Assembly: GCA_964487785.1 (NCBI GenBank)
Contig: CAZASU010000003.1
Location: 353-64,352, forward strand
Reading direction: 5' to 3'
Source of the DNA: an uncultured Gemmatimonadaceae bacterium
GTDB taxonomy: Bacteria > Gemmatimonadota > Gemmatimonadetes > Gemmatimonadales > GWC2-71-9
Length of the DNA stretch: 64,000 nt
In this document: piece after piece, positions 2,466-62,126 of the stretch
Position numbering within the stretch: position 1 is the first letter of the stretch
Layout: the number at the start of each line of letters is the position of its first letter
Translations under genes and position numbers: made by a program
Notes under the pieces: generated by a model
Databases searched by the model: none
What the model was told of the DNA's origin: nothing
What the model saw: only the letters and a program-made list of their open reading frames with translations

Positions 2466-2651
2466 AGGGTCGAGGGTCAGGAGTCGGGAGTCGGGGAGTC
2501 AGGAGTCTGCAACGGTCTCCTCATCCCGAGCAAAGCGAGGGACCTACTGCGCCGGCTTCCGGACGGTACGAAGTGGGTCCTTCGCTGCGCTCAGGATGAG
2601 GACGAATCTTGTGACTGAGGTTCCCGACTCCTGACTCCTGACTCCCGACTC
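2466..2651. repeat. composite palindromic element: tandem GGAGTCRG octamer arms plus GC hairpin core
   Basis: Left arm gggtcaggagtcgggagtcggggagtcaggagtc. Right arm cccgactcctgactcctgactcccgactc (its reverse complement). Core stem tcctcatcccgagcaaagcgagggacc / gggtccttcgctgcgctcaggatgagga. Fills the convergent gap between the stops at 2464 and 2653. Confidence 0.85.
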
Positions 2652-2652
2652 A

Positions 2653-4065
2653 TCACTTCTGCATCTCCTGTACGATTCCCGAGTATAGCCTCAGCCCGAA
2701 CTCGATGTTCTCCAGCGAGAGCCGCTCATTGATGCCGTGGACGCTGTGGCGGTTCTCGTCCAGCTCCACCAGCCAGGGGTCGATACCGTAGCAGATGACA
2801 CCGGCCGACGCGTAGTACGGCCGGTCCGATGCGCCGGCGCTGACCGGTGTGGCGATCGGGACGCCGGGAAGGAGCCGGCGGGCCACTCGCTCGATGGCGT
2901 GAAAGAGCTCGGTATCGAGCGGCGCGTCGTAGCGCGGCGCCATGTCTCCGATGGACTCGAGGGTGATCTTCGGATCGGCGATGATGCCTTCCAGCGTCCG
3001 GCGGAATGCGGTCGTGTCCTGGTCCGGCAGAAGGCGTATGTCCAGCTCCGCCGAGGCCTGCCGCGGAATGCTATTCGTCTTGTCGGATCCGGTCAGCACC
3101 GTGGGCGTGACCGTGTTCCGGAGCAGCGCGTTCCGCTCCGGCTCGCTCAGGATCCAGGCCCGTCCCCGTTTGCTGCGCAACGCGCCCGCGGCATCCGCCA
3201 GCCAGGTCCGCTGCTCGCCCGTCTGGTAGCGGGATTGGGCCTTGAAGAAACGATCCACTGCTGGGGTCAACCGTACCGGCGTCTGCCAGGCTGAAACCCG
3301 GGCCAACGCCTTCACCAGCCGCTCAACAGGATTGTCTCCCAACGGCACCGACCCATGCGATCCGGTGCCCCGCGCGATCAGCTTCTTCCACCAGGTGCGC
3401 TTCTCGCCCACGTCGATCCCGAACCAGAGGGGACGGCCGTTCTCCACTCGAGTGTCAGCGCCTTCGGTGAGGACGTACTCGATGCCACTCACTAAGTCCG
3501 GATGCCGCTCGATGAAGGTGCGCGTGCCCAGCCCGCCGACCTCTTCATCGGCGTTGGCGATGTAGACCAGATCTCGCTTTAGTGAGAGGCCCGCGCGCTT
3601 GACGGCAATGAAGGTGGAGAGCTGAATGATGCCATGCCCCTTCATGTCCAGGGCTCCGCGTCCCCACACGTACCCGTCCTTGGTCTCGCCCCCGAATGGG
3701 TCCACCGACCAGTCGCCCCTGGTGGCAGGTACCACATCCATATGATGGATCAGCGCAATCGCTTTCCCCGGGCCGGTTCCCTTCAACCGGGCGTAGAAAT
3801 TGGCTCGACCGGCTCCCAGCTCGGCCGTGTCGAGGATGTGTCCCTCGATCCCCTCCCTGGCCAGCACCTCCTTGAGCCACCGCGCGGTGGCCAGCTCGTT
3901 CCCCGGCGGATTGCTGGTATTGATCCGGAGATACTCGGAGAGCCGCTGCGCGGTCTCGTTGCGCAGCTTGGCATAATCAAAGGCCGGCGCCTGCGCGGCG
4001 GCGGGCACCGAGAGCGCGAACAGGAGTGCGGCCGGTCGGGTGAGCGGACGGACAAGGCTGATCAT
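2653..4065 (-). CDS. M20/M25/M40 family metallopeptidase, secreted
   Basis: 470-aa ORF. Signal peptide MISLVRPLTRPAALLFALSVPAAAQA. Motifs HHMDVVP, GRGALDMKG and ADEEVGG. Its ATG overlaps the upstream stop (ATGA at 4062-4065). Confidence 0.85.
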   Translation of the reverse strand: MISLVRPLTRPAALLFALSVPAAAQAPAFDYAKLRNETAQRLSEYLRINTSNPPGNELATARWLKEVLAREGIEGHILDTAELGAGRANFYARLKGTGPGKAIALIHHMDVVPATRGDWSVDPFGGETKDGYVWGRGALDMKGHGIIQLSTFIAVKRAGLSLKRDLVYIANADEEVGGLGTRTFIERHPDLVSGIEYVLTEGADTRVENGRPLWFGIDVGEKRTWWKKLIARGTGSHGSVPLGDNPVERLVKALARVSAWQTPVRLTPAVDRFFKAQSRYQTGEQRTWLADAAGALRSKRGRAWILSEPERNALLRNTVTPTVLTGSDKTNSIPRQASAELDIRLLPDQDTTAFRRTLEGIIADPKITLESIGDMAPRYDAPLDTELFHAIERVARRLLPGVPIATPVSAGASDRPYYASAGVICYGIDPWLVELDENRHSVHGINERLSLENIEFGLRLYSGIVQEMQK

Positions 4066-4827
4066 CGAGTCTCCAGAAGCATGCGGCCGGCCAGCTCCTT
4101 GACCAGCTTGGCGCTGACAGCCGCGGTGACCCCGGTCCGATCGGCGGCCGGATTGAACTCCACGAAGTCGGCACCCACCAGCGGTGCCGTAAGCGACTGA
4201 AGGACGGCGAGCGCCTGGCGCACCGAAAAGCCGCCCGCCTCACGGTGGGAGATCCCAGGTACCAGCCCGGGCTCGATCACGTCGAGGTCGAACGACACAT
4301 AGACTGGCGTGTCGAATTCCGGCTTCATCCCATCGCGCCAATCCTTCATCTCGATCACCTCCACCCCAAAGCGCTGCGCCTGCTCCCGCTGGTGCCCTGT
4401 CATCGTGCGGATACCCACCTGGACCAGCCGGTCGGCCAGGCCTTCCTCCATCACCCGGGCGAACGGGCAGGCGTGCGAGTAGCGATCACCCTGGAACTCA
4501 TCGTGGAGATCTCCGTGGGCGTCGAAGTGGAGGATGCTGAGCCGGGGATGAAAGGGCCGAAAGCCGCGCAGGACTGGATAGGTGATCGAGTGGTCGCCGG
4601 ACCTGTGCTGGATCCTCGTCCGCAGCCGGAGTCAGGTCGCCCTCATCATCCAAGGCCGCGGTGCTGAGATCGACGCCGAGCTCGGTCCAGGGATTCCCGG
4701 CTTCAGACCAGAGCGCCTGCCGGATGACCGGCGGCGCTCCCGCCGTGCCTCGCAGATAGGAGGAGCTGCCATCGTAGCAGACGCCGAGCAACGCTACTCT
4801 GGAAGGGGCCACCGCCTTGGGACTCAC
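4062..4827 (-). pseudogene. arginase/agmatinase/formiminoglutamase-fold hydrolase, interrupted by a single frameshift near 4600
   Basis: The N-terminal 76 codons are in ORF 4498..4827. The rest continues in the frame of ORF 4062..4454, which is open upstream to 4631 and encodes SGDHSITYPVL, ILHFDAHGDL and SFDLDVIEPG (metal-site motifs of the fold). The two frames meet at 4599-4605. Confidence 0.8.
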
Positions 4828-6383
4828 TCAGCCAGGGTCCCCAAATGGGTTTGGCGCTCGAGCCGGGTGAACCCCGCCGCAGCCTCAGGTTCGGGCGCCA
4901 GGAGCGACACCAGGATGCCGGCAAGGAAGGACAGCGGCAGGGTCACGAGCGCCGGATTCTTCAGCGGGAACCAGGCGTTACCGTGCCCCAGGATTTCCAC
5001 TTGAATGGTGGGCGAGAAATAAATCAAAGCCAGGGTGGCGAGGGTCCCGGTGGCCATGCTGGTGACTGCGCCGGCAGTGGTGTAGCGCCTCCAGAAGATC
5101 GCGAGCACCAGGGCAGGAAAGTTGGCACTCGCCGCGATGGCGAAGGCCAGCGACACCATGAAGGCAACGTTTTGCCCCTTGAAGGTGATGCCCAGCCCCA
5201 CCGCCACGACGCCGAGCGCCAGCGTTGCGATCCGGGCGACGCGGAGCTGCTCCCGGGCATCGGCGCGCCCTTTCCGCACCACGCTGACCCAGAGATCATG
5301 CGAGAGGGCGGCGGCGCCCGAGAGGGTAAGACCCGCCACCACGGCGAGGATGGTGGCGAACGCGACCGCGGCGATGAATCCCAGAAACGGGGTGCCTCCC
5401 AGCAGCTCGGCAAGCAGCGGAGCGGCCATGTTGCCACCCTTGTCCACAGCCCTGATCGTGTCCGGGCCTATCAGCACCATGGCTCCAAAGCCCAGGATGA
5501 AGGTGAGCAGATAGAAGAGCCCGATGAGACCGGTGGCAATGAAGACCGAGGTGCGGGCCGCGCGAGCGTCCGGCACGGTGTAAAATCGCATCAGGATATG
5601 GGGCAGTCCTGCCGTGCCGAACATCAGGGCCATCCCCAGCGAGATGGCGTCGAGTGGGTTCGATACCAGCTTGCCCGGCGCCAGTACCCCGGCACCGTAG
5701 CGCTCCGCTGCCGCGGCAAACAGCGCGGCAGGACTCATGTGGAACCGCAGCAGCACGAGCAGGGCGAGCAGCAATGCACCGCTCATGAGCAGCACCGCTT
5801 TTACGATCTGTACCCAGGTCGTCGCGATCATCCCGCCGAAGAGTACATATCCGATCATCACGATCCCGACCAGGACGATGGCATGCTCGTAACTGAATCC
5901 GAACATGAGCCGGATCAGCCCGCCGGCGCCCACCATTTGCGCGATGAGATAGAGCGTCACCGTGGCCAGGGTCCCCAGCGCGGCCGCGATGCGCACCGGG
6001 GTCTGCCGCAACCGAATGGCCACCACGTCGGCGAAGGTGTACCGGCCCAGGTTCCGCAGCGGCTCGGCAATGAGGAAGAGCACCACCGGCCAGCCGACCA
6101 GCCAGCCGGTCGAGTAGATCAGCCCGTCAAATCCGGTGGTCGAGACCAGCCCCGCAATCCCGAGGAAGGACGCCGCGCTCATGTAGTCGCCCGCCAGGGC
6201 AAAGCCGTTCTGCCCGGCGCTGATGGTGCGCCCCGCGGCGTAGAAGTGTTCGGTGGTGTGGGTGCGGCGCGCCGCCCAGAACGTGATCCCGAGGGTGATG
6301 CTGATGAAGACAAAGAAGAACGCCATAGCCACGGCGTTGGGTTGCCCGATGGCGGTATCGGCCGCGGCCTGATTTAGGGTCAT
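4824..6383 (-). CDS. actP: cation/acetate symporter ActP (sodium:solute symporter family)
   Basis: Within ORF 4824..6437; start taken at MTLNQAAADTAIGQPNAVAMAFFF, whose ATG overlaps the DUF485 stop. TTEHFYAAGR and GDYMSAASFLG are typical of ActP. Preceded by its usual DUF485 partner. Confidence 0.85.
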   Translation of the reverse strand: MTLNQAAADTAIGQPNAVAMAFFFVFISITLGITFWAARRTHTTEHFYAAGRTISAGQNGFALAGDYMSAASFLGIAGLVSTTGFDGLIYSTGWLVGWPVVLFLIAEPLRNLGRYTFADVVAIRLRQTPVRIAAALGTLATVTLYLIAQMVGAGGLIRLMFGFSYEHAIVLVGIVMIGYVLFGGMIATTWVQIVKAVLLMSGALLLALLVLLRFHMSPAALFAAAAERYGAGVLAPGKLVSNPLDAISLGMALMFGTAGLPHILMRFYTVPDARAARTSVFIATGLIGLFYLLTFILGFGAMVLIGPDTIRAVDKGGNMAAPLLAELLGGTPFLGFIAAVAFATILAVVAGLTLSGAAALSHDLWVSVVRKGRADAREQLRVARIATLALGVVAVGLGITFKGQNVAFMVSLAFAIAASANFPALVLAIFWRRYTTAGAVTSMATGTLATLALIYFSPTIQVEILGHGNAWFPLKNPALVTLPLSFLAGILVSLLAPEPEAAAGFTRLERQTHLGTLAE

Positions 6384-6661
6384 CCGCCCGACTCCAGCAG
6401 TGCCCGAATCTGCGGATCGTAGACCGTGTTGGCCCACCGGACGTAGACCCAGGTGAGAATCCAGGAGGCCACGATCACGAGCGCGCCGAGCAGGATCCCC
6501 AGGCTGAGCCCTGGCACCACCTGGACGGCGAGGACCGGCCCCCCGAACGCCACCAGGGCAATGAACCCGAAGTAGAGCAGGACCGTTGCGCCCGTGAGCG
6601 TCAGGGCCATCCGCCAGCGGGCCCGGTCGAGGTCACGCAGCCGGGAATCAACGCCGGTCAT
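6380..6661 (-). CDS. DUF485 (YjcH-like) small membrane protein
   Basis: Within ORF 6380..6697; start at MTGVDSRLRDL. Two hydrophobic helices. Canonical position directly upstream of actP with an overlapping stop/start. Confidence 0.75.
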   Translation of the reverse strand: MTGVDSRLRDLDRARWRMALTLTGATVLLYFGFIALVAFGGPVLAVQVVPGLSLGILLGALVIVASWILTWVYVRWANTVYDPQIRALLESGG

Positions 6662-8018
6662 GTCCCCTCCGCGCGCCGAGGAGGTAGACCAGGGCACCGC
6701 CGGCGACCAGAAGAATCGTGAGGCCGGCGACCTTGATGACCGCGAGCAGCTTGCCGGGCTCGTCTTCGGCCGGGATCAGCGCGAGTGCAATCGAGATCGT
6801 GGTGACGGTAAACCCGAGCGTTGCCAGGGCCACCGCCACTGGCCGGCCACCGGGAACCCGGATCACCTCGGGGCCGGCGGGCTCCCGCTGGAGTCGGATC
6901 ATCGAAGCGAACATGAAGAGGTAGGGAATGAAGTAGGAGATAATAGACATGCTCACCAGGACGTCATAGGCGCCCTTCACGGTCGTGCCTGCCTGTCCCA
7001 GCAGGATGAATCCGGCGGCGACGGCGGCCTGCGCCAGCAGGCTGACGTGGGGCGATCCGTAACGCGGATGAATCCGTCCGAACGCTCGGGGGAGGAACCG
7101 GTCCAGGCCCGCCACGAAGGGGAGCCGGCCGGCCGCTGCAAACCATGCCCCGGCCTGCCCCAGCCCCCCCACCACGATGAGCACCGCGATCAGCGGAGCC
7201 AGGCCGCCGACATCGAGCCTGTGGCTTACCCTCTCGATCGAAGTCATGAACCCATCCAGATGCAGGATCTCGGCCTGCGGCAGTGCCACCAGCATTGCCA
7301 AGGTTCCCAGCACGTAGAGCCCGGTGATCAGCACACCCGCCACGAGCAGGGCTCGGGGGATGTTGCGCCGTGCGTCGCGTATCTCCTCGCCCATCATCGA
7401 AGCGCTCTCCAAACCGCTCAGAGAGAAGGCGATGGTGGACCAGAAGACGATGTCTTTGAGCCGCGTGCTCGGCACCATGTTCTCGCTGGTGAACGGCGTC
7501 GCCGAGCAAAAACGTACCCAGGCGACCAGGCCGAGTGCCATCAAGAAGAGGCCCGGAATCCAGAGTCCAACCGCGCCCAGGTTGTGCAGCCATTTGCCCA
7601 CCGCCAGGCCGCGCACGTTGAGCCCGGCGGCGAGAGCCAGAGCGAGGAGAGAAAAACCGATGAAATAGAGCGGACGGTCGGCGAGCTGTCTCCACTCCGG
7701 TCCGCCGATGAAGAGGGCGGTTGCGGCGGTGAAGTAGAAGAGACCCGGGAAGTAGGGCAGGTTGGAGGTCCAGTAGGTCCAGCCGGTGATGAACCCAGCG
7801 AAGTCGCCGAAGGCCCGCTTGCTCCAGACGTAGCAGCCACCCTCGTTGGGATACCGGGACGAGAGCTCCAGAACCGTGAACATCAGCGGGATATAGAAAG
7901 CCAGGCATGCCGTCAGCCAGATGACGATCGCGCTCGGCCCTGCGGAAGCCGCGGTGCCGATCCAGCGCACGGTGAAGCCGGTGACCAGGTAGAACAGCAC
8001 CAGATCGCGAAACCCCAT
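6648..8018 (-). CDS. APC-family amino acid permease
   Basis: C-terminal 456 codons of ORF 6648..8663, beginning MGFRDLVLFYLVTGFTVRWIG. Multi-pass membrane protein with ...NEGGCYVWSKRAFG... An alternative GTG at 8081 overlaps the upstream stop (GTGA). Confidence 0.8.
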   Translation of the reverse strand: MGFRDLVLFYLVTGFTVRWIGTAASAGPSAIVIWLTACLAFYIPLMFTVLELSSRYPNEGGCYVWSKRAFGDFAGFITGWTYWTSNLPYFPGLFYFTAATALFIGGPEWRQLADRPLYFIGFSLLALALAAGLNVRGLAVGKWLHNLGAVGLWIPGLFLMALGLVAWVRFCSATPFTSENMVPSTRLKDIVFWSTIAFSLSGLESASMMGEEIRDARRNIPRALLVAGVLITGLYVLGTLAMLVALPQAEILHLDGFMTSIERVSHRLDVGGLAPLIAVLIVVGGLGQAGAWFAAAGRLPFVAGLDRFLPRAFGRIHPRYGSPHVSLLAQAAVAAGFILLGQAGTTVKGAYDVLVSMSIISYFIPYLFMFASMIRLQREPAGPEVIRVPGGRPVAVALATLGFTVTTISIALALIPAEDEPGKLLAVIKVAGLTILLVAGGALVYLLGARRGHDRR

Positions 8019-25003: not shown

Positions 25004-25042
25004 CAGCGGGGCAGCGGGGCAGCATGCTGCCCCGCCGTCAGC
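25004..25042. terminator. GC-rich palindrome built from GCGGGGCA units (putative bidirectional terminator)
   Basis: cagcggggcagcggggcagcatgctgccccgccg sits between convergent stops at 25000-25002 and 25043-25045. Perfect stem gcggggcagc/gctgccccgc around the gcatgc centre. Confidence 0.6.
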
Positions 25043-28705: not shown

Positions 28706-28818
28706 CAAGGAGTCATTGCGAGGGCGCTTGGCGCCCCGAAGCAATCCAGCCGCCGGGACTGCGGAGCTGCGGGATCGCCACGCGGGCCTGCGGCCGCGCT
28801 CGCGATGACTGGCTCCCT
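28706..28818. repeat. structured intergenic palindromic element (GTCATTGCGAG...CTCGCGATGAC type)
   Basis: Outer stem gagtcattgcgagggcgc / gcgctcgcgatgactg encloses ...ccccgaagcaatcc... Lies in the divergent gap between starts at 28661 and 28853. Confidence 0.6.
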
Positions 28819-40737: not shown

Positions 40738-42035
40738 GCGAGTTGCTAGGGTTAGGATCCGATCTGTCCTGGTGGGCCTGGACCCTGATGGCTATCGGCG
40801 TCATTGCCATCATCGGAGTGTTCGGCGCCCTTTTCTTGCCCGACTGGCCCAGCGACGATTTCACGATGGGGTTCGAGGCCGATCCGGGCTCGGAGACATT
40901 CGTGGAGTGGATTTCGTGTTACCTGAACAGCCCGATCTTGCAGGGAGGTGAGGTCACCATCCTTCAGAATGGCGACGCGTTCTTTCCCGCGATGCTGGAG
41001 GCGATCCGGAAAGCCAAGGATTCGGTCAATTTCGAGGTCTACATTTTCGAGCCTGACGAGATCGGGCGCCAGTTCATGGATGCGTTCAAGGACCGGGCGC
41101 GCGCGGGGGTGGAGGTCCGGCTGCTACTCGACGGCTTCGGTGGCATCAAGATGACGAAGCGCTATCGGGCGGAGCTTCGCGAGGCGGGTGTGACTGTCGC
41201 CCGCTTCCGCCCCTTTGGGCTGCGTAGTCTGGTGCGGTTCTATAAGCGGACCCACCGGCGGGCGATCGTCATCGACGGCCGGATAGGCTTCACTGGCGGC
41301 GCGGCGGTGTCGAAGAAGTGGAAGGGTAACGTCAGCAACCCGCATGAGTGGCGTGACAGCATGACCCGCGTGATGGGGCCCATGGTCGCCGGCATCCAAT
41401 CGGCCTTTGCGATCAACTGGGTCCACTGCTGCGGCGAAGTGATCGCCGGACCTCGCTTCTTCCCCACCTTCGAGCGCGGTCCTGGACCCTGCGGTCTCTC
41501 AGTGGTGAGCTCTCCATCCGACGCGATGCAGCCCATTCGCCTCCTCTTCTGGGTCAGCTTCATCAACGCGAAGCGGCGTCTCTGGATCTGCAACTCCTAT
41601 TTCATTCCTGACAACCGATTACGAAATGCCGCCATCGAGCGAGCCAAGAGCGGCGTGGACGTACGGGTCCTGGTGCCAGGCAATAATACCGACGCGCTGC
41701 CGGTTCAAGCGGCCGGGCGGAGCTACTACGAGGAGCTGCTCGCGGCCGGCGTCCGGATCTTCGAGTTTCAACCCGCGATGATGCATGCCAAGACCACCGT
41801 GGTGGATGGGGCCTGGTCCATCGTGGGGTCGGCCAATCTGGACGAGCGCAGCATGGAGCTCAACGAGGAGAACGTACTGGGGATCGCGGACAAAGACTTT
41901 GCCCAGGCTATCGAGCGGGGAGTGACGGCCGACTACGCGCGATCGCGGGAGATCCTGCTGGAGGAATGGCGGAAGCGCTCGATTTTTCGCCGCGGCGTGG
42001 AGCGGGTTTGTAAGATCTTGATCGAGCAGTATTAG
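40734..42035 (+). CDS. cls: cardiolipin synthase-like phospholipase D family protein
   Basis: 433-aa ORF. The GTG start overlaps the upstream stop (GTGA). Two PLD motifs: THRRAIVIDG...GG (Lys replaced by Arg) and MHAKTTVVDG...GSANLD. Confidence 0.8.
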   Translation: MSELLGLGSDLSWWAWTLMAIGVIAIIGVFGALFLPDWPSDDFTMGFEADPGSETFVEWISCYLNSPILQGGEVTILQNGDAFFPAMLEAIRKAKDSVNFEVYIFEPDEIGRQFMDAFKDRARAGVEVRLLLDGFGGIKMTKRYRAELREAGVTVARFRPFGLRSLVRFYKRTHRRAIVIDGRIGFTGGAAVSKKWKGNVSNPHEWRDSMTRVMGPMVAGIQSAFAINWVHCCGEVIAGPRFFPTFERGPGPCGLSVVSSPSDAMQPIRLLFWVSFINAKRRLWICNSYFIPDNRLRNAAIERAKSGVDVRVLVPGNNTDALPVQAAGRSYYEELLAAGVRIFEFQPAMMHAKTTVVDGAWSIVGSANLDERSMELNEENVLGIADKDFAQAIERGVTADYARSREILLEEWRKRSIFRRGVERVCKILIEQY

Positions 42036-42038
42036 GAC

Positions 42039-42139
42039 GAAGGCTATAGGCTATAGGCTATTGGCTCTTGGCTGATTACCTCTTGGCTCGTAGCTATGGT
42101 GGGGCTGCTCATGTCATAGCCCATAGCCAATAGCCTTCT
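42039..42139. repeat. palindromic element with tandem GGCTATWG octamer arms
   Basis: gaaggctataggctataggctattggct ... catagcccatagccaatagccttc are inverted, imperfect arms. Lies between convergent stops at 42035 and 42142. Confidence 0.8.
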
Positions 42140-42141
42140 CA

Positions 42142-42402
42142 TCACACCGGCCCGTTGAACGCCGGGTCGCAGACTCGGGTTCGGAGGTCCGTTTCCTGTC
42201 CTCGGTACCAGCCCCCCCGGAACTCGAAATGCCGCTCGTCCAGGAGGCGCGTGCCAAGCGCGTCTGTTCCCCGCTGCTGAACCTGCCAGAGTAGCACCCG
42301 GGCGCCCATTTCGGCAGCCGGCTCCCAGATGTCAGGTGTCAGGGGAGGGTACAGGCCCGCAAACTCCGGCTTCAATCTGGCCTGCCGGGCTGTCGAATCC
42401 AT
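42142..42402 (-). CDS. hypothetical protein
   Basis: Part of ORF 42142..42573; start guessed at MDSTARQARLKPEF. No motif recognised. Confidence 0.3.
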   Translation of the reverse strand: MDSTARQARLKPEFAGLYPPLTPDIWEPAAEMGARVLLWQVQQRGTDALGTRLLDERHFEFRGGWYRGQETDLRTRVCDPAFNGPV

Positions 42403-44370: not shown

Positions 44371-45408
44371 ATGCGCATCGCAGTCGTTTTTGACACCCCG
44401 TACTCGGGCTGGGATCATCCCGAGCACGAGCTCCAGATGGAGAAGGACATCGCCGCCTGGAAGACGGACGAGCCCGACATGGAGTATCAGATCGCGCACG
44501 CACTCCATGAGCGCGGCCACGAGATCCAGCTCATCGGCGTGCGCGACGATTTGCAGTACCTGGTCCGGTGCCTTTCTGAGTGGAAGCCGGATCTGGTGTT
44601 CAATGGCGCCGAGGCCTTCAAGGGCAACGAGGCGCTGGAATACCTGCTCCCCGGGCTGCTCGAGGCAGAGGGGTACCGCTACACCGGCGCTCCACCGCTG
44701 GCGCTCCAGGTCACCCGCAACAAGGCCATCAGCAAGATGGTTCTGGCCTATGTCGGAATCCGGGTGCCCGGCTTCACTTCGTACCGTCTGCAGGAGAAGG
44801 TCGAGGCCACTCCCGACCTGAGGTTTCCCCTCTTCGTAAAGCCGCTGCAGGCAGATGGCTCAGCCGGGATCGCTCAGGCCTCCGTGGTGCAGGACGTTGC
44901 CTCCCTGGCCGACCGGGTCACCTTCATTCAGGAACGGTTCGGCCAGGGAGCCATCGCCGAGGAGTTCGTGGACGGAAGGGAGCTGTACGTCGGCGTCATC
45001 GGCAACGATGACTCGCTCGAGATCCTGCCGATAATCGAGATGGTGTTCGACAAGCGAAAGACCCGCCCCGAGGAGCGGATAGCCACCCAGTTTGCCAAGT
45101 GGGACGAGGCCTACCGGGAGCGCAAGGGAATCCGCAACGTGGTGGCTCGCCCGATCTCCAAGGCGGCGCGCGCCCGGATCGAGGAGACCTGTCGAACCGC
45201 CTGCCGAGCTCTCTGGCTCCGGGACTACGCCCGGCTCGACCTTCGTCTCGCGCCCGACGGGCAGGTTTGGGTTCTCGAAGCCAACGCCAACCCCTTCATC
45301 AGCTACGGTCACGATATGGCCAATGCGGCCGCGAAGGCGGGGATGGAATACTACGATTTCATCCAACGCATCGTGGATGCGGCGATCGCGCGGTATGAGC
45401 GCTCGTAG
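44371..45408 (+). CDS. D-alanine--D-alanine ligase-like ATP-grasp protein
   Basis: 345-aa ORF. Ddl-like layout (MRIAVVF..., NGAEAFKGNEALEYLLPGLLE, TRNKAISK, FPLFVKPLQADGSAGI, WVLEANANP). Confidence 0.75.
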   Translation: MRIAVVFDTPYSGWDHPEHELQMEKDIAAWKTDEPDMEYQIAHALHERGHEIQLIGVRDDLQYLVRCLSEWKPDLVFNGAEAFKGNEALEYLLPGLLEAEGYRYTGAPPLALQVTRNKAISKMVLAYVGIRVPGFTSYRLQEKVEATPDLRFPLFVKPLQADGSAGIAQASVVQDVASLADRVTFIQERFGQGAIAEEFVDGRELYVGVIGNDDSLEILPIIEMVFDKRKTRPEERIATQFAKWDEAYRERKGIRNVVARPISKAARARIEETCRTACRALWLRDYARLDLRLAPDGQVWVLEANANPFISYGHDMANAAAKAGMEYYDFIQRIVDAAIARYERS

Positions 45409-46444: not shown

Positions 46445-46897
46445 GTGCTTGGCTGCAAAGGCAGGAACAACGGCAGCCCCGGCACCGAGTCGGCCGTGGT
46501 GGCGTTGCCGGGTGACAGCTCCGCCTCGGCGCCCCGCCGGGATCACCGCTCGGTCGCGGAGAAAGTCGTAACCCAGAGCGCCGGTGTGAAACAGGGTGAC
46601 GGACTGGAGCCATTGCAGTCGGCCTACGACGCAGCCGGTCCGGGTAAGGACGTGCTCGGGGTTATCGATATAGGGATCAACCCGGGGATCAAGTCGCCCG
46701 AGCGCAGTCCGGTGCACGTGTGGGGTAAAGCTGGCACCGTCACCGTGCTGGTGGGCAACAACACGTGGGCGGGCGGCGATAACCAGGTGAGGTTCGGCAT
46801 CCCGGCGTATTCGCCCGGCAGCACCCTGACCGTAGACGGTAAGCCGCTGGTCCAGGAGGGAAGGCTTGTAGCAGCGGAGGACGTCGCCGACCGCTAA
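46445..46897 (+). other. possible 5'-truncated gene fragment (lipoprotein remnant; weak M29-aminopeptidase-like C-terminus)
   Basis: ORF 46445..46897. The frame opens directly at the upstream TGA (46412) and reads HLGVGAGLTLVLGCKG, a lipobox-like LVLGC with no usable start codon before it. The C-terminal GINPG...NNTWAGGDNQ only loosely recalls M29-type peptidases. Confidence 0.3.
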
Positions 46898-47886: not shown

Positions 47887-49065
47887 ATGACCCACCGACT
47901 CTATTATATCGACTCATACCTCCGCGATTTCGAGGCAGCGGTCATAGAGCGGTCGGACGATTCCCGCCGCATCTACCTCGACCAGACCGCCTTCTACCCC
48001 ACTTCCGGTGGCCAGCAGTTCGATGTCGGCCAGCTGGGGGGAATCGAGGTCACCGATGTGGTAGACGAAGGCGAGCGGGTTGCGCACCTGCTTGCGGCTC
48101 CCCTAACCGGCGAGCGGGCCCGGGGCCAGATCGATTGGGACCGACGCTTTGACCATATGCAACAGCATACCGGCCAACATCTGCTCTCTGCCGTCCTGGC
48201 CGGGCTTACCGGCCACTCCACGGTCGGAGTCCACTTCGGTGGCGCAAGCTCGACCCTGGATCTGGACGCTGCGGCCCTCACTCCGGATCAGGTATCCGAA
48301 GCCGAGGAGCGAGCCAATGCGATTGTGGTTCAGAATCGCCCGGTCGAGGTGAGCTTTGAAGCGGCGACGGCGGCCGACGGGCTGAGGAAACCCACTGAGC
48401 GAGAGGGAACGCTCCGGATTGTCACCATCCAGGGCCTCGACCGGAGCGCGTGCGGCGGAACCCACGTACGAGCCACTGGAGAGATAGGCCCAATCCTGAT
48501 CCGGAAGTTGGAGCGGGTCAGGAAGGGAGTGCGAGTCGAGTTTCTCTGTGGCAGCCGGGCCACCAGGCGGGCTGGTACCGACTACGGGCTCCTCTCGCGG
48601 CTTGCCGCCGAGTTCTCGGCCACGGCCGAGGAGCTGCCTCGGCTGATCGTGAGCCACCGAGACGAGATCAAGGAGGCCAACGCAACCAACCGGGAGCTGC
48701 AAGGGAAGCTGGATCTCTGTCGCGCTCGAGAGTTTTACGCCGCCGCCACGCCGGAGAGCACCGGGATCCGCCGGGTAACGGTCTGGGAGAACGGGACGGC
48801 AGCGGACACCCTTCGGGGATTGGCCCAGGCGTTCAGCTCGATGCCACTGGCGGTTTTCGTCGGGGCGGTAGCCAGCCCTCCCGCAGTGGTGCTGGCCGCG
48901 TCAGAGGACACGGGGATCGATGCCGCGAGCCTCCTCAAGAGCCTCCTCACCAGCGTGGGTGGGAGGGGAGGCGGTTCCGCCCGGCTAGCCCAAGGGATAG
49001 TGCCGGGACGCGCTCAACTGCAGACGGTGGTTGAGAGTCTGGGGTCGAGGGCTAGTGCATCCTAG
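47887..49065 (+). CDS. alaX: alanyl-tRNA editing protein AlaX-L type
   Basis: 392-aa ORF. FYPTSGGQ, HTGQHLLSAV and ACGGTHV zinc motifs of the AlaRS editing domain, plus a C-terminal DHHA1-like part. Confidence 0.85.
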   Translation: MTHRLYYIDSYLRDFEAAVIERSDDSRRIYLDQTAFYPTSGGQQFDVGQLGGIEVTDVVDEGERVAHLLAAPLTGERARGQIDWDRRFDHMQQHTGQHLLSAVLAGLTGHSTVGVHFGGASSTLDLDAAALTPDQVSEAEERANAIVVQNRPVEVSFEAATAADGLRKPTEREGTLRIVTIQGLDRSACGGTHVRATGEIGPILIRKLERVRKGVRVEFLCGSRATRRAGTDYGLLSRLAAEFSATAEELPRLIVSHRDEIKEANATNRELQGKLDLCRAREFYAAATPESTGIRRVTVWENGTAADTLRGLAQAFSSMPLAVFVGAVASPPAVVLAASEDTGIDAASLLKSLLTSVGGRGGGSARLAQGIVPGRAQLQTVVESLGSRASAS

Positions 49066-49089
49066 ACCCTCGACTCTAGACCCTCGACT
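49036..49089. terminator. hairpin plus tandem 14-mer (ctagaccctcgact x2) at a convergent gene junction
   Basis: ggtcgagggctag (49043-49055) pairs with ctagaccctcgac (49062-49074). The 14-mer is repeated at 49076-49089. Sits between the alaX stop (49063-49065) and the sigma-factor stop (49095-49097). Confidence 0.5.
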
Positions 49090-54803: not shown

Positions 54804-54882
54804 ACCAAGCCGCTCAGCTGCAACTTACAAGAATCCGGAGCCCGTCCTGGGCTCCGGATTGCTTTTTCAGGGTGGGGTCGTT

Positions 54883-56540: not shown

Positions 56541-56621
56541 TCGGGCGGACGGGCGGACGGGCGGTCGGTAGAAGCGGGGGGCGACTACCTGCCCCGCCGC
56601 CCCGCTGCCCCGCCTTCTTCC
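56541..56621. repeat. palindromic element with tandem octamer arms (GGGCGGAC x3 / TGCCCCGC x3)
   Basis: gggcggacgggcggacgggcggtcgg ... tgccccgccgccccgctgccccgcc, with an inner stem cggtagaag / cttctaccg. Lies just downstream of the SDR gene stop at 56625. Confidence 0.65.
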
Positions 56622-58478: not shown

Positions 58479-61412
58479 CTAAATGACCGGGGCACCCAAT
58501 GCAGGCGGTATGCCAAGATGCTCCAGAACCAGACCCGCCTCCGTGATAAACAGATGACCCTGAGCGCGGTTGCCCCCCCGTTGCTCGGCGTGGGTGAGCA
58601 CCAGTCGGGCCTTGGCTCGGGTCATTCCCACGTAGAGAAGGCGACGGGCCTCCTGGATTTCGTCGTCCTGGTCCTCCTGGATAGCCCGCCAACCGGGGAG
58701 GACCTGGTTCTCGACCCCCACGATGTACACCCGGGAGAATTCCAGACCCTTGGTCGAGTGGAGCGTCAGCAGATTCACACGGTTGGGATCGGTCTCAGCC
58801 CCTTCGCTGCTCGAGAGCGCCACCCGGCACAACATATCGTCGATGTGCTCCGCGAGAGTGTCTCCGGCACTCGCCTGTATCAGCATACGGAGGCGCTCAA
58901 CGGAATCCGGATAACGCTCGTTCACCGGCCGATCCGCACGCAGGCGCTCCATCAGGGCGCGTCCACCCAGCCGCTCGATAACCTCCTCGAGGCCGAGCGC
59001 TCCCTCGGCCCCGCCGGCCAACTCGGCCGCATAAATGTCGAGGCAGTCGCTGTAGCGGCCGAGGGTGAAGGGTCGGGTTATTTCGCGGAAGAGAGCCTCT
59101 TCCTTGGACGGCGACGACTGCTGATCGAGCGCCAGGGCCAGGCCCAGCTGATCCAGGAGATGGACCAGGGCGATGGTGCGGGCGCGACGTAGCCTCAGCT
59201 CGTTGAGCTTGGGCACCACGGCGGCAAGCATGAGCGCATCGTCAAGCGCGTGGTGCGCTCTCCCAATCTCGACATTGTACCTCTGGGCGAGAAACGAGAG
59301 CTTGACGCTGCCATCGACCACGGCGCGAGCAAGTGGGAGAGTGTCGTAGAAAACCAGCTCATCGAACCCCTCGAGGCCACCGCAGGCGCGCCGCAGCACC
59401 GGAACATCGAATTCCTGCCCATTGTGGGCGACGACGAGGTCGGCTCCCACGAATTCGCGGAAGCGCTGCCACACTTCAGACATCGGAGGCGCTCCGATCA
59501 GGTCCCGATCGGTGTAGCCATGCACATCCGTGGCCTGCGCGGAGATGCTGCGCGCGCACGCCACCAAGGTATGGAACCGATCCACCACGACGTTGTCCCG
59601 AACCCGTACAGCCGCAATCTCGACGATCTGGGACGATTCGAAATCGAAGTCGCTGGTCTCGATGTCGAAGGCGACGAAATCGTCGAAATCGGCCTTCAGG
59701 TTGCGGGTATGAACCAGTTGAAGCGCCTTGAAGAGCCGGAGTGGCAATCCACCGTCCAGGCTTTGCCCAGCCCGTAGAACCACATCATCAGCCGCGGGCA
59801 TCTCATGCGGCATGAGCCGGTGGACCTTGGTTATCCCGGCCCCTCGGAGCATGGCGATCAGAGGGATCTCGACCCCGCCGCTCGGCTCGACCCAGACCCG
59901 GCCTCCGGAGACGACGCAGTGCGCCAAGCGTTTCGCCAGGGCGGCAGCGCCGGGATAGAGCGACGGCTCTCTCAGGTCGTGATGGTACTCCTCCAGGGGA
60001 TTGCGGCCGGCGCCGATGGGCCGCGCGAGCAGCTCATCCACCAGGCCGGATAGTGATTGGTGAGACCGGCCCATCCCCCTCAGGTTCTCCAGGTGGTAGA
60101 TCAAACGCCACACGCGCCTGCGGTCGGCGTCTCCCTTGGGACGCTGACTGGCAAAGGCCCGGAGGTTTCCAAGGAAGTCCTTCTCCCTGGATGAAGCCTT
60201 TCGAACTTCCTGACGCAGGGCGGGGTTGAGGGCAAGCTCGGCCAGCGCTCCGACCAGAATTGGGTCGTCGGGTGATCGGATGACCCGCAAGGATGCGATG
60301 ACCCAGCCGACCACCTTGTCGTCGACCAGGGCCTGGCCCCGCGCCATCCGGCACGGAATTCCCGCGCAAATCAGCCGCTTCTCCAGGTCTCGCCCCATCG
60401 AGCGGTACCGGTAGAGTACGGCATAGTCGCCCCAGCCCATCTGTGCCATGGCGCGATCGCTCAGAATGTCCCGGATGAGCCAATCGGCCTCGGCCTCCTC
60501 GTTGTCGAAGCCACACGCCACCACGTCGAACGGCGATTTCAGGGTGCTGTCAATCTGCTTTTCGAAGAGCACCGGATTACAGGCGATCAGGCGCCGGGCA
60601 GACTCCAGAATCTGGACCGAGCATCTCCGGTTTTCATCGAGGACGATCGGCTCCCGCAGGGTGAAGTCCTCGCGGAACCGGCCCATGATGCCCGGGTCGG
60701 CTCCAGTCCAGGAGAAAATGGATTGCTCGTCGTCTCCCACGCCGAAGAGGCACCGATGCCCGTCGGCCAACCGGCGGACGATGCCATACTGAGTCGGGCT
60801 CAGATCCTGGAACTCATCTACCAGCACATAGTCCCAGCGGGAGCGCAGCTCGGCGGCCGCGCTCTCATCGGTACGGAGAAGGTGCTCCGTCAAGGTGATG
60901 AGGTCGTCGAAGTCCACAAGGTTTCGAGATCGCAGGGCTTCCTGGTACTGGCCAAAGAACGCCATGCCGCGGTCGCTTAATGTCTTGCTCCGCAGCCGGT
61001 GGAGACTGAATTGGGCCAGCGCCTGGGAGACTCGCCTGGCGGGAATCCGGAGCCGTCGAAGCACCTGCTCCTGGTACTCGCGGTCCGCCACCCCGAAGCC
61101 TGGACGGAGGCCACAGCGTTCGGCGAAGTCCCGGAGAATCATGAGGCAGATCGCGTGTAGTGTGCCGCGAGTGACATCCGCCGCGGTGATCCCGCGGGTT
61201 TCGTGCAACCGGGTGGCAATCTCTTCCGCGGCCTTGTTGGTAAAGGTCACCGCGAGGATCCGCCGTGGGGCGATGCCCAGCGTCCCGATCAAGTGCTGGA
61301 TGCGATGGATCAGGCAGTACGTTTTTCCGGCTCCGGGTCCGGCGATGACGAGCGCAGCGCCGAGCGGGGCCTCGATGGCCTGTCGTTGTTGCCGGGTAGG
61401 CTCGTAGCTCAT
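58479..61412 (-). CDS. UvrD/PcrA-family SF1 helicase with embedded DnaQ-like DEDDh 3'-5' exonuclease domain
   Basis: Within ORF 58479..61577. ATG 61412 overlaps the upstream stop (ATGA). Helicase motifs GPGAGKT, AVTFTNKAA, VLVDEFQD, GDDEQSIF, LHSTKGLEF and YVGMTRAK. Between them: FVAFDIETSD, VAHNGQEFDVPVL and HHALDDA. Confidence 0.85.
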   Translation of the reverse strand: MSYEPTRQQRQAIEAPLGAALVIAGPGAGKTYCLIHRIQHLIGTLGIAPRRILAVTFTNKAAEEIATRLHETRGITAADVTRGTLHAICLMILRDFAERCGLRPGFGVADREYQEQVLRRLRIPARRVSQALAQFSLHRLRSKTLSDRGMAFFGQYQEALRSRNLVDFDDLITLTEHLLRTDESAAAELRSRWDYVLVDEFQDLSPTQYGIVRRLADGHRCLFGVGDDEQSIFSWTGADPGIMGRFREDFTLREPIVLDENRRCSVQILESARRLIACNPVLFEKQIDSTLKSPFDVVACGFDNEEAEADWLIRDILSDRAMAQMGWGDYAVLYRYRSMGRDLEKRLICAGIPCRMARGQALVDDKVVGWVIASLRVIRSPDDPILVGALAELALNPALRQEVRKASSREKDFLGNLRAFASQRPKGDADRRRVWRLIYHLENLRGMGRSHQSLSGLVDELLARPIGAGRNPLEEYHHDLREPSLYPGAAALAKRLAHCVVSGGRVWVEPSGGVEIPLIAMLRGAGITKVHRLMPHEMPAADDVVLRAGQSLDGGLPLRLFKALQLVHTRNLKADFDDFVAFDIETSDFDFESSQIVEIAAVRVRDNVVVDRFHTLVACARSISAQATDVHGYTDRDLIGAPPMSEVWQRFREFVGADLVVAHNGQEFDVPVLRRACGGLEGFDELVFYDTLPLARAVVDGSVKLSFLAQRYNVEIGRAHHALDDALMLAAVVPKLNELRLRRARTIALVHLLDQLGLALALDQQSSPSKEEALFREITRPFTLGRYSDCLDIYAAELAGGAEGALGLEEVIERLGGRALMERLRADRPVNERYPDSVERLRMLIQASAGDTLAEHIDDMLCRVALSSSEGAETDPNRVNLLTLHSTKGLEFSRVYIVGVENQVLPGWRAIQEDQDDEIQEARRLLYVGMTRAKARLVLTHAEQRGGNRAQGHLFITEAGLVLEHLGIPPALGAPVI

Positions 61413-62089
61413 CGGTGAGCCTGGCCCAGGATTTGGGATCGCACCCACTGCACGATCGAGTCGGCCAGCTCGTCGAGTACCGCGGCCGCTGTGCGGCCGG
61501 AGCTCTTGAGGACGCCGAAGGAGTGGTCGGCTCCCTCCACCGGGTGCAGCGTGGCCCGACTCCCCAATCGTTGACACACTCCGGTCATCAGCTCGGGCTG
61601 GGCAAACTGGTCACGGGTGCCCTGAAGGAAGAGCATGGGCAGCTCTACCCGGACGAGGTGATCGGCGCGACGGGTGCCGGGGCGGCCCGGCGGGTGGAGC
61701 GGAAAACCCAGGAAGACCAATCCTCGCACTCCGGGCAGCGAGCTCGCAGCCGCACCGGATGTCATGCGGCCGCCGAACGACTTGCCGCCGGCGATCAGCG
61801 GAAGGCCGGGCGCCACCTTCGCGGCCCAGGTCACCGCCGCGCGCACGGTTGCTTCGGCCACGGCTGGAGAATCCGGACGGCGGCCACCGGCTTCCATATA
61901 GGGGAACTGGTATCGCATGGTAGCCACGCCGCGGGTGGCGAGCGTCGCCGAGATGGACGTGAGGAATCCGTGCCGCATGCCGGCGCCGGCGCCGTGGGCA
62001 AGGACATAGAGGAGCCAGGCATCAGGTGGACGCTCGAGGAGGGCGGAGACCAAACCGAGGTCACCTAAATCCAGGTTGAGCTCTGTCAT
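61409..62089 (-). CDS. alpha/beta hydrolase of the COG3571 (KANL3/Tex30-like, dienelactone-hydrolase-related) type
   Basis: 226-aa ORF. VLAHGAGAGM, GGKSFGGRM (nucleophile elbow), LFLQGTRD and GADHSF. Confidence 0.7.
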   Translation of the reverse strand: MTELNLDLGDLGLVSALLERPPDAWLLYVLAHGAGAGMRHGFLTSISATLATRGVATMRYQFPYMEAGGRRPDSPAVAEATVRAAVTWAAKVAPGLPLIAGGKSFGGRMTSGAAASSLPGVRGLVFLGFPLHPPGRPGTRRADHLVRVELPMLFLQGTRDQFAQPELMTGVCQRLGSRATLHPVEGADHSFGVLKSSGRTAAAVLDELADSIVQWVRSQILGQAHR

Positions 62090-62126
62090 TCCGAGGATCC
62101 CTGAACGAGGTGAAGGTCCGAGGAAT

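Follow-up and report, generated by a model that had tools for sequence, protein, structure and literature searches.

We describe a family of inverted-repeat elements in a 64,000-nucleotide (nt) stretch of the genome of an uncultured Gemmatimonadaceae bacterium (contig CAZASU010000003.1; this whole stretch is hereafter referred to as the window). The window has a GC content of 63-66% and, as judged by Pfam annotation of its ~50-60 open reading frames (ORFs), is an ordinary chromosomal region whose proteins recur in soil-type metagenome assemblies. An initial annotation had named six loci, beginning near positions 2466, 25004, 42039, 49036, 56541 and 63009, at which arms built of short tandem units recur with unit sequences that differ between copies, in some cases around a central hairpin, or core. 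All six exist where it placed them, and its statement that the elements lie directly after stop codons, mostly where two genes converge, agrees with the gene context.

The 2466 element spans the gap between the stop codon of a Rieske oxygenase gene (TAG, 2462-2464) and that of a convergent M20 peptidase gene (2653-2655, minus strand). It begins with two GAGGGTC heptamers (2465-2478, +) that abut the Rieske stop and lack a partner in the right arm. These are followed by a left G-rich arm of four GGAGTCR units, one of which is 8 nt long (2479-2507, +), two repetitive extragenic palindromic (REP) hairpin units in opposite orientations (2516-2552, +, with a CCTC tag, an ATCCC stem and the centre GAGCAAAGCGA; and 2568-2604, -), and a right C-rich arm of four GACTCCY units (2622-2651, +) that ends 1 nt short of the peptidase stop. 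The 42039 element separates a PLD-family gene from a convergent 143-residue ORF. Its left arm (42039-42089, +) starts 4 nt past the PLD-family stop (42035) and consists of three AGGCTAT units followed by degenerate TGGCTNT heptamers, and its right arm of three ATAGCCN units (42115-42139, +) ends 2 nt short of the stop of the facing ORF (42142). At 25004-25042 (unstranded), a minimal palindrome of GCGGGGCA units occupies the gap from the stop of an OmpA-family gene (25002) to that of a convergent ORF (25043). A GAGGGTC-type heptamer hairpin with a duplicated 14-mer (CTAGACCCTCGACT, twice; 49035-49089, unstranded) overlaps the stop codon of an AlaX-like gene (49063-49065) and ends 5 nt short of the stop of a convergent sigma-70 gene (49095); its unit type is the one also found at 2465-2478.

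The remaining two loci have other settings. Between two co-directional genes, a CGGGCGGA octamer array of 3.4 copies (56542-56568, +) is followed by three copies of GCCCCGCY (56591-56614, +; reverse complement GCGGGGCR). The last element (63009-63179) lies in frame, with no stop codons, in the LigD linker that joins the ligase and polymerase domains. It is formed by a GCGGGGCR octamer arm (63009-63041, +; found by both repeat searches described below), a degenerate REP-like hairpin at its centre (GTCACCCTGAGC...GCTCAGGG; 63079-63123, -) and a YGCCCCGC octamer arm (63143-63179, +) complementary to the first. Two further REP-like features are present in the window. A variant with a longer central insert (TGTCATTCCGAG...CGAGGAATCT; 62081-62135, +) lies in the gap separating the LigD stop from the start of the following gene, and an inverted doublet of variant REP units (GTCATTGCGAG...CGAAGCAATCCAG and GTCATCGCGAG...GGCGATCCC; 28712-28809, unstranded), read directly from the sequence, lies without array arms between divergent genes.

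Arrays were called with Tandem Repeats Finder (TRF), and arms were paired by an inverted-repeat search. TRF reports arrays of period 7 at 2476-2507, 2622-2651, 42041-42066 and 42115-42135, arrays of period 8 at 25004-25023, 56542-56568, 56591-56614, 63009-63031 and 63143-63179, and a perfect two-copy duplication of period 14 at 49062-49089, which is the duplicated 14-mer noticed in the initial annotation. The inverted-repeat search returns the arm pairs 2469/2623, 42039/42116 and 63009/63145, as well as a 34-nt core stem (2518-2551/2569-2602). The arms had originally been read as octamers; the period is indeed 8 at 25004, 56541 and 63009, whereas the supposed octamers GGAGTCRG and GGCTATWG are really the heptamers GGAGTCR and AGGCTAT. 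As a chance control, the window was simulated 300 times with a second-order Markov model. Arrays with a period of 7 or more and at least 2.5 copies number 5 in the window as compared to a simulated mean of 0.04 (maximum 1), and 3 arrays in the window, versus none across the 300 simulations, have a two-unit inverted partner no more than 250 nt away. The recurring architecture with locus-specific arms is thus borne out by TRF, the inverted-repeat search and the simulations.

A shuffled-sequence control for the hairpins gives the same picture for five of the six loci. Folding z-scores relative to shuffles are -11.0 for 2462-2655, -5.9 for the LigD element (63000-63190), -3.6 for 42033-42144, -3.45 for the 49036 hairpin and -3.0 for the 25004 palindrome. 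At 56541, neither of two alleles is more stable than its shuffles (z = 0.0 and -1.05), and the two arrays are not complementary; the earlier reading of this locus as a palindrome with paired arms is therefore rejected. The 2466, 42039 and 56541 elements are present again in independent JGI and Logan assemblies, the 42039 element being identical in one of them (L087; comparison sequences are designated by L numbers), so they are not assembly artefacts. Several short-read metagenome contigs (L003, L004, L005, L006, L088 and L093) terminate inside or at the edge of elements, which indicates that the elements fragment assemblies. A search of the whole window against Rfam at gathering thresholds gave no matches, and a permissive scan of 2400-2720 gave only microRNA-precursor and RAGATH-10 hits far under threshold, which we regard as spurious.

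The core unit is a hairpin of ~30 nt with the consensus TGTC-ATCCY-GA-GCGNAGC-GA-RGGAT-CT (also written TGTC-ATCCYGAGCGNAGCGARGGAT, with GAGCGAAGCGA as its centre). Among 17 aligned units the tag is mostly TGTC; the two window units and L012 have CCTC instead, and L025 has CGTC. The stem (ATCCYGAGC paired with GCGARGGAT around GNA) is formed in 94% of cells, with compensatory changes at four of seven pairs (T-A to C-G in 7/17 sequences and A-T to G-C in 3/17), and the outermost pair forms in only 10/17 sequences. The flanking stem beside the GAGCGAAGCGA centre falls into two length classes, 0-3 and 4-5 pairs, and since the sequence set was chosen for pairing, only this bimodality and the types of pairs carry weight. 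The 3' tail is CTG or CTT in the main type, and the 28712-28749 variant ends in CCAG. The GCGNAGC loop, in which N is free, is the consensus of an unusually stable DNA mini-hairpin, a resemblance that hints that the life cycle of the core may include a single-stranded-DNA stage.

A covariance model built from the core confirms that the motif is common to several loci, as had been suggested. It matches 2516-2552 (+; 42.0 bits), 2568-2604 (-; 44.8 bits), 62081-62135 (+; 27.5 bits, E = 2e-5) and, weakly, the centre of the LigD element at 63079-63123 (-; 17.8 bits, E = 0.04). The echo of the core that had been reported at 28706-28818 is a related variant doublet by eye, but it was missed by the covariance model (R1). 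One more match (58658-58712, 19.9 bits), in the 3' part of a UvrD-like gene, was regarded as due to chance. The model was also applied to a census set of 1.31 Mb, which comprises the window and 80 LigD loci with their flanks, and returned 42 matches in total, including tandem and inverted clusters. Cores occur without arrays at L051, L059, L027 and L052, as single units, inverted doublets or tandem clusters (clusters at L051 5868-6049 and L059 6517-6631), and arrays occur without cores at 42039, 25004 and most elements of L039. Where both are present, the core is on the inner side of the array or arrays. The composite is two independent layers that are sometimes nested and not one element class, contrary to the single REP/MITE-like class proposed at first (MITE, miniature inverted-repeat transposable element). 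Inverted doublets of the core motif are also found, likewise without such arrays, in a Calothrix plasmid and in a Phocaeicola record, so the motif spans phyla. Literature searches for GAGCGAAGCGA returned unrelated primers only, and searches for Gemmatimonadetes repeats returned nothing specific.

The census (899 TRF rows) places the arrays in a wider context. The 80 closest LigD loci of the genome collection, with identities of up to 84%, come mostly from metagenome-assembled genomes (MAGs) of Gemmatimonadales or Gemmatimonadota, which include all of the closest. Arrays of period 7 (64) and period 8 (70) are on par with the coding periods 6 and 9, while periods 5, 10 and 11 are scarce (7, 11 and 6 arrays, respectively), and a strict inverted partner is found only among arrays of period 7 or 8. 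The density of each of these two periods is ~51 arrays/Mb in Gemmatimonadota loci versus 11-19/Mb in other phyla (0.26 Mb). Unit diversity is high, with 88 distinct units among 127 arrays, and many units contain no G-run (AGGCTAT, AATTGCT, AGCCGTT, GCGTTCG and GTGAACG). Convergent junctions hold 10 of the 12 intergenic paired arrays as compared to a background of 139/541 (26%; P = 5e-5), and in most of these cases an arm starts 0-14 nt from the end of the gene that flanks it. Of 19 elements that could be scored, 18 have the G-rich arm on the 5' side (P = 8e-5); as this polarity survives reverse complementation, it belongs to the element and not to the strand that is read.

Some units recur within a genome: GCGGGGCA at three window loci, as the initial annotation had recorded, GAGGGTC at two, and four units in L039. 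The L039 contig (MAG MFD02242, contig_34747) is exceptionally dense between 5700 and 21700, with at least ten 7- or 8-mer arrays in 22 kb. There, different unit types adjoin to form mosaics, and AGCCGTT, GGAAGGAC, GCTGATT and AGGCGAC are reused at separate loci. Two ideas about the units were rejected. Variation within arrays clusters at certain unit positions (P = 0.0002), as might be expected of an error-prone joint in a special mode of synthesis; the clustering is equally expected from duplication of variant units and is no evidence for such a step. The second idea starts from the fact that a 7- or 8-nt unit with a stop codon in it would put stops into all three frames; this holds for AGGCTAT and GTGAACG and fails for GGAGTCR and GCGGGGCA, and it was rejected as a general explanation.

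Comparison of orthologous sites reveals how these arrays turn over. Among strains whose flanking proteins are 100% identical to those of the window, L001 carries two additional GACCCTC units in the 2466 element (four GAGGGTC versus two) and L092 one additional CCGCCCGT unit at 56541. Two further strains, L091 and L095, have an unrelated stretch of ~70 nt in place of the 56591-56614 array and the centre. The M20-peptidase/Rieske junction was compared in 22 metagenome relatives (59-87% identity), in which its length ranges from 0 to ~330 nt. Empty sites, for which the initial annotation had recommended a search, are present: in L110 and L111 both stop codons abut (TAG followed directly by CTA, 0 nt), and in L112 they are separated by 10 nt. 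A single CGTTCAC overlaps the Rieske stop codon in L109. In L113 there are approximately four GTGAACR/YGTTCAC heptamers per arm. The left arm of L106 exceeds that of L113 in length, runs into the peptidase reading frame and provides its stop codon. The arrays that intrude on the M20 peptidase gene at its 3' end and supply its stop, at L106 1615-1700 and L113 1806-1850, show that these repeats rewrite protein C-termini. Other relatives carry other units at the same site. Specifically, L123 (87% amino-acid identity) shares its first unit, AGTCGGGAG, with the window, whereas the remaining units of both arms are CTGGGAG/CTCCCAG as compared to TCRGGAG/CTCCYGA in the window; L117-119 have TGGTNGC arms; L104 and L120 have G-rich octamers and approximately ten GTTCCGCC units around a core doublet, with copy numbers that differ between the two; and L101 has the core doublet alone.

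The LigD linker provides a second series. It measures ~45 residues in Pseudomonadales and Myxococcota and 50-92 residues in many Gemmatimonadales, and in ~18 Gemmatimonadales orthologs it contains inverted repeat arrays or REP doublets, the latter encoding peptides such as VIPSEARDL and VTLSAAKG. The units differ by lineage (GCGGGGCR/YGCCCCGC, GGGGAGT/ACTCCCC, GGGGAAW/WTTCCCC and GGGRATG/CATYCCC), and the arms stay complementary; the predicted folds range from -44 to -119 kcal/mol. We considered selection on the sense mRNA, in which case G-U pairs should favour the sense fold. In 19 LigD-linker elements, the stabilities of the sense and antisense RNA folds differ in both directions with no consistent sign, which gives this idea no support and fits better with a strand-symmetric process at the DNA level.

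Taken together, we consider it rather likely that the elements combine two already known types of bacterial repeats, nested within one another in an uncultured Gemmatimonadales chromosome, with arrays that grow in place and REPs that insert independently. The arms would be long simple-sequence repeats with units of 7 or 8 nt, set in inverted pairs that let each of the two strands form a long hairpin, and the cores would belong to the CGTC/TGTC/CCTC-tagged REP superfamily. In the mechanism that we propose, replication slippage would duplicate in tandem a short stretch located at a stop codon or overlapping it, and fold-back or template-switch copying across the nascent palindrome would then make the inverted arm and keep it matched. 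Gain, loss and conversion of units would spread variants through all units of both arms, and the outcome would be a unit peculiar to each locus and lineage within a shared architecture. REP hairpins would insert into arrays independently. Arrays would last where extra DNA is tolerated, that is, in convergent gaps, in the last codons of genes and in the disordered linker between the LigD ligase and polymerase domains. Transcription of the hairpins is probable, and they may have a stabilising or attenuating influence on 3' ends, which would be a side effect and not their raison d'etre.

Several points weigh against this interpretation. Slippage and template switching are inferred by comparing states, with no event observed, and the mechanism explains neither the period of 7-8 nor the G-rich 5' arm; seeding of the polarity by purine-only stop codons suits L113 and 42039 but not the LigD arrays. 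The recurrence of units across loci of one genome (GCGGGGCA, GAGGGTC and the four of L039), together with the wholesale replacement of one arm and the centre in L091 and L095, indicates some copying between loci, which goes beyond a purely local model. That perfect arms persist in the LigD linker throughout an order could alternatively be due to selection for the hairpin itself. Lastly, the 80 loci were picked via LigD, so the LigD cases are not independent of one another, and the context statistics rest on crude gene calls based on GC content at third codon positions (GC3).

Selection for a function at gene ends is one competitor to growth in place. The elements could be bidirectional terminators or 3'-end stabilisers that are maintained for convergent genes, with arms that vary since only the hairpin matters, an account that we find unlikely. 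It would explain why 10/12 intergenic paired arrays are convergent with arms at or near stop codons, why the predicted hairpins are so stable (z to -11.0), why an element is present at four of the five convergent junctions of the window with a gap larger than 20 nt, and why arm complementarity is kept while the sequence changes in LigD and at the M20-peptidase/Rieske junction. However, no U-tract follows and no A-tract precedes the hairpins of the 2466 and 42039 elements, whereas ordinary terminators exist alongside them in the window: canonical hairpins with GC-rich stems of 10-14 bp followed by T-tracts are found at 54832-54860 (+), 51842-51810 (-), 56041-56014 (-) and 52242-52219 (-). Moreover, the orthologous junction is empty in L110 and L111 and only 10 nt long in L112, predicted hairpins of -50 to -120 kcal/mol lie inside an intact LigD frame in many species, and the 56541 element folds no better than shuffles. 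A weaker effect on 3'-end stability may be compatible with this evidence.

The features that growth by slippage leaves unexplained would be accounted for by a more far-reaching idea, which we regard as speculative and doubtful. A dedicated process that operates across phyla, and that is neither transposition nor ordinary microsatellite slippage, may build the arrays, for example by hairpin-primed (fold-back) reiterative synthesis at gene 3' ends, possibly triggered by REP processing or by the repair of breaks between convergent genes. If this were true, G-first inverted arrays of 7-8-nt units would be made and homogenised in place in Gemmatimonadales, Xanthomonas and Nostocales, and one enzyme system would have left all of the following as its signatures: the fixed period, a strand-symmetric polarity with G first, arms that match, and unit types that now and then pass between loci.

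It is very unlikely that the whole composite is a mobile element of the MITE type or of the REPIN type (REP doublet forming a hairpin), with a transposase recognising the tandem-repeat arms as terminal inverted repeats. In favour of this, the core is a doublet of REP-type hairpins, the presumed mobile unit of REPINs (PMC3116915), some units are found at several loci of one genome, one allele type (L091/L095) has an arm and the centre replaced wholesale, and metagenome contigs break within the element as they do at dispersed repeats. On the other hand, arms and centre are never both common to two loci, and there are 88 distinct units among 127 arrays; as the initial annotation had argued, copy-paste transposition is insufficient for arms that differ between loci. 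In addition, neither 2466/2651 nor 42039/42139 shows a target-site duplication, one orthologous site (the M20-peptidase/Rieske junction) displays a stepwise series of heptamer expansion, arrays and cores each occur without the other, and Pfam annotation detected no transposase, Y1 transposase, REP-associated tyrosine transposase (RAYT), reverse transcriptase or integrase among the ~50-60 ORFs of the window. Least probable of all is that the G-rich arrays are G-quadruplex regulatory elements (with an i-motif on the C-rich strand), as proposed for the GGGAATC arrays of Xanthomonas: suitably spaced runs of three or four G are present in GCGGGGCA, GGGGAGT, GGGGAAT and GGGAACA, and the G-rich strand is the coding strand just past the stop, as reported in Xanthomonas (PMC4692102), but G-runs are absent from the many units named above, several arrays have fewer than four of them, and the complementary arm would compete with a quadruplex through duplex or hairpin pairing.

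Other features of the window were recorded in passing. A UvrD-like helicase gene (58479-61577, -), two genes from LigD, encodes helicase domains that are separated by an inserted RNase_T-type exonuclease domain. The block 4001-8000 has an AT skew of 0.20 versus ~0 elsewhere in the window and contains minus-strand genes for a sodium:solute symporter and an amino-acid permease. Within it, a 130-residue ORF of the arginase family (4062-4454, -) matches only positions 143-277 of the 280-position Pfam profile, its C-terminal half; since other assemblies contain the same short gene call, this may be a truncated gene.

Heptamer arrays have been known in cyanobacteria since 1990 and as inverted pairs in Xanthomonas since 2015. 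Gemmatimonadales are a third, unrelated lineage with such arrays, and one with an unusually high unit diversity. They offer two natural series, namely a single convergent junction that passes from empty to one heptamer to approximately four to ten units per arm, and LigD linker arms that change together across an order, which make array growth and arm complementarity open to comparative-genomic and experimental testing. There are also practical consequences, as metagenome assemblies break at the elements, which also change the 3' ends of genes along with their stop codons and insert translated junk into proteins; annotation pipelines should recognise them.

The initial annotation had considered the architecture unusual; similar ones are in fact present in Xanthomonas (PMC4692102), in cyanobacteria (PMC2670836) and on the Nostoc punctiforme plasmid pNPUN01. 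With respect to mobile repeats, the core doublets resemble REPINs, in which REP doublets are mobilised by RAYT transposases (Bertels and Rainey 2011, PMC3116915), in that two inverted REP hairpins and a short spacer form one long hairpin (2516-2604; also L022, L025, L027 and L038). They differ in that the tag is TGTC or CCTC rather than GTAG, and no RAYT gene was seen in the window. The elements depart from MITEs in that the arms vary by locus and no direct repeat flanks 2466/2651 or 42039/42139.

A closer relative of the core is the CGTC-tagged REP superfamily, which includes RPE-4 and RPE-6 of Rickettsia (Di Nocera et al. 2013, PMC3733652). In that superfamily the CGTC tag is often TGTC or CCTC, the stem of 8-9 pairs starts with A-T and T-A, the loop is 4-5 nt and the tail is CCA; the units occur as singles, head-to-head or tail-to-tail dimers and clusters, and dimers sometimes lie within larger palindromes (PMC3733652). 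In-frame intragenic copies are enriched in genes of DNA replication and repair, including a DNA ligase, and no dedicated transposase is known (PMC3733652). CGTC-type REPs are also reported to lack an associated RAYT. The core fits the superfamily on all points but the tail: it shares the tag, stem, loop, the occurrence as singles, dimers and clusters, and in-frame copies in a repair gene (LigD), whereas its tail is CTG or CTT except in the 28712 variant. Unlike the CGTC-REPs described, its stem has tandem G-A mismatches around the GCGNAGC mini-hairpin, and the encoded peptides are VIPSEARDL and VTLSAAKG as compared to VIPAKAGI. The families listed in PMC3733652 do not include Gemmatimonadota, Cyanobacteria (Calothrix) or this sequence type. 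A Calothrix PCC 7716 plasmid was considered for the cyanobacterial comparison below and was set aside, as its 50-kb region has 9-mer arrays and not heptamers. These tandem 9-mers (TTCTTTGCG, AACGGATGT and others; L097 520-550, and L099 35905-35930, 36906-36932 and 38451-38477) flank genes, and one of the arrays adjoins a REP doublet.

With regard to the arms, the short tandemly repeated repetitive (STRR) heptamers of heterocystous cyanobacteria reportedly go back to work by Mazel et al. in 1990 and Vioque in 1997, and small dispersed repeats nested within heptamer repeats are said to have been described by Elhai et al. in 2008. STRR heptamers can form hairpins (PMC2670836), and they share with the arrays described here the dispersed intergenic location and the 7-bp tandem period. 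On pNPUN01 (L100) we found four inverted heptamer elements (964-1088, 1559-2001, 44801-44883 and 46627-46818) with locus-specific units, the G-rich arm first, and a long centre that is present or absent. The unit TCAGGAG, equivalent to the GGAGTCA of 2479-2507, is identical at L100 964-997 and 1559-1611; this could be coincidence or reflect a favoured unit, which holds a Shine-Dalgarno-like AGGAG. The inverted TCAGGAG/CTCCTGA arrays at 1559-1614 and 1963-2001 enclose a 366-nt gene annotated as 'four helix bundle protein' (1617-1982), which occupies the place where a core would sit. The Nostoc elements differ from ours in phylum and GC content, were observed between co-directional genes, in one case enclosing a whole gene, and showed no octamers. 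STRR hosts are heterocystous cyanobacteria, whereas the closest LigD relatives of the window are all Gemmatimonadales MAGs.

The closest parallel to the paired arms is found in Xanthomonas campestris and X. axonopodis, which contain G-rich arrays of the heptamer GGGAATC, usually in 3-6 copies (Rehm et al. 2015, PMC4692102). These arrays are mostly intergenic, 0-50 nt from a stop codon, with the G-rich strand as the coding strand, and each genome has 70-75 pairs in convergent orientation, one array per strand, for which stem-loops or cruciforms are possible; positions are kept between species while length and sequence vary (PMC4692102). As cited in the same paper, heptanucleotide long simple-sequence repeats are generally over-represented in bacteria (Mrazek et al. 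2007), and 7 nt has been proposed, in the only published idea on the period, to be a DNA-polymerase footprint that favours slippage. The elements described here share with the Xanthomonas pairs the tandem units of period 7, the inverted pairing, the location near stops, the G-rich coding strand and a host GC content of ~65%. In Xanthomonas, however, one G-tract unit dominates genome-wide, whereas here nearly each locus has its own unit, many without G-runs; octamers are as frequent as heptamers; the convergent-junction share is 10/12 pairs as compared to 16%; and the arrays also encode the LigD linker and house REP doublets. What is new relative to known heptamer pairs is thus the diversity of units, the octamers, the concentration at convergent junctions, the presence in LigD across an order, and the nesting with CGTC-type REPs.

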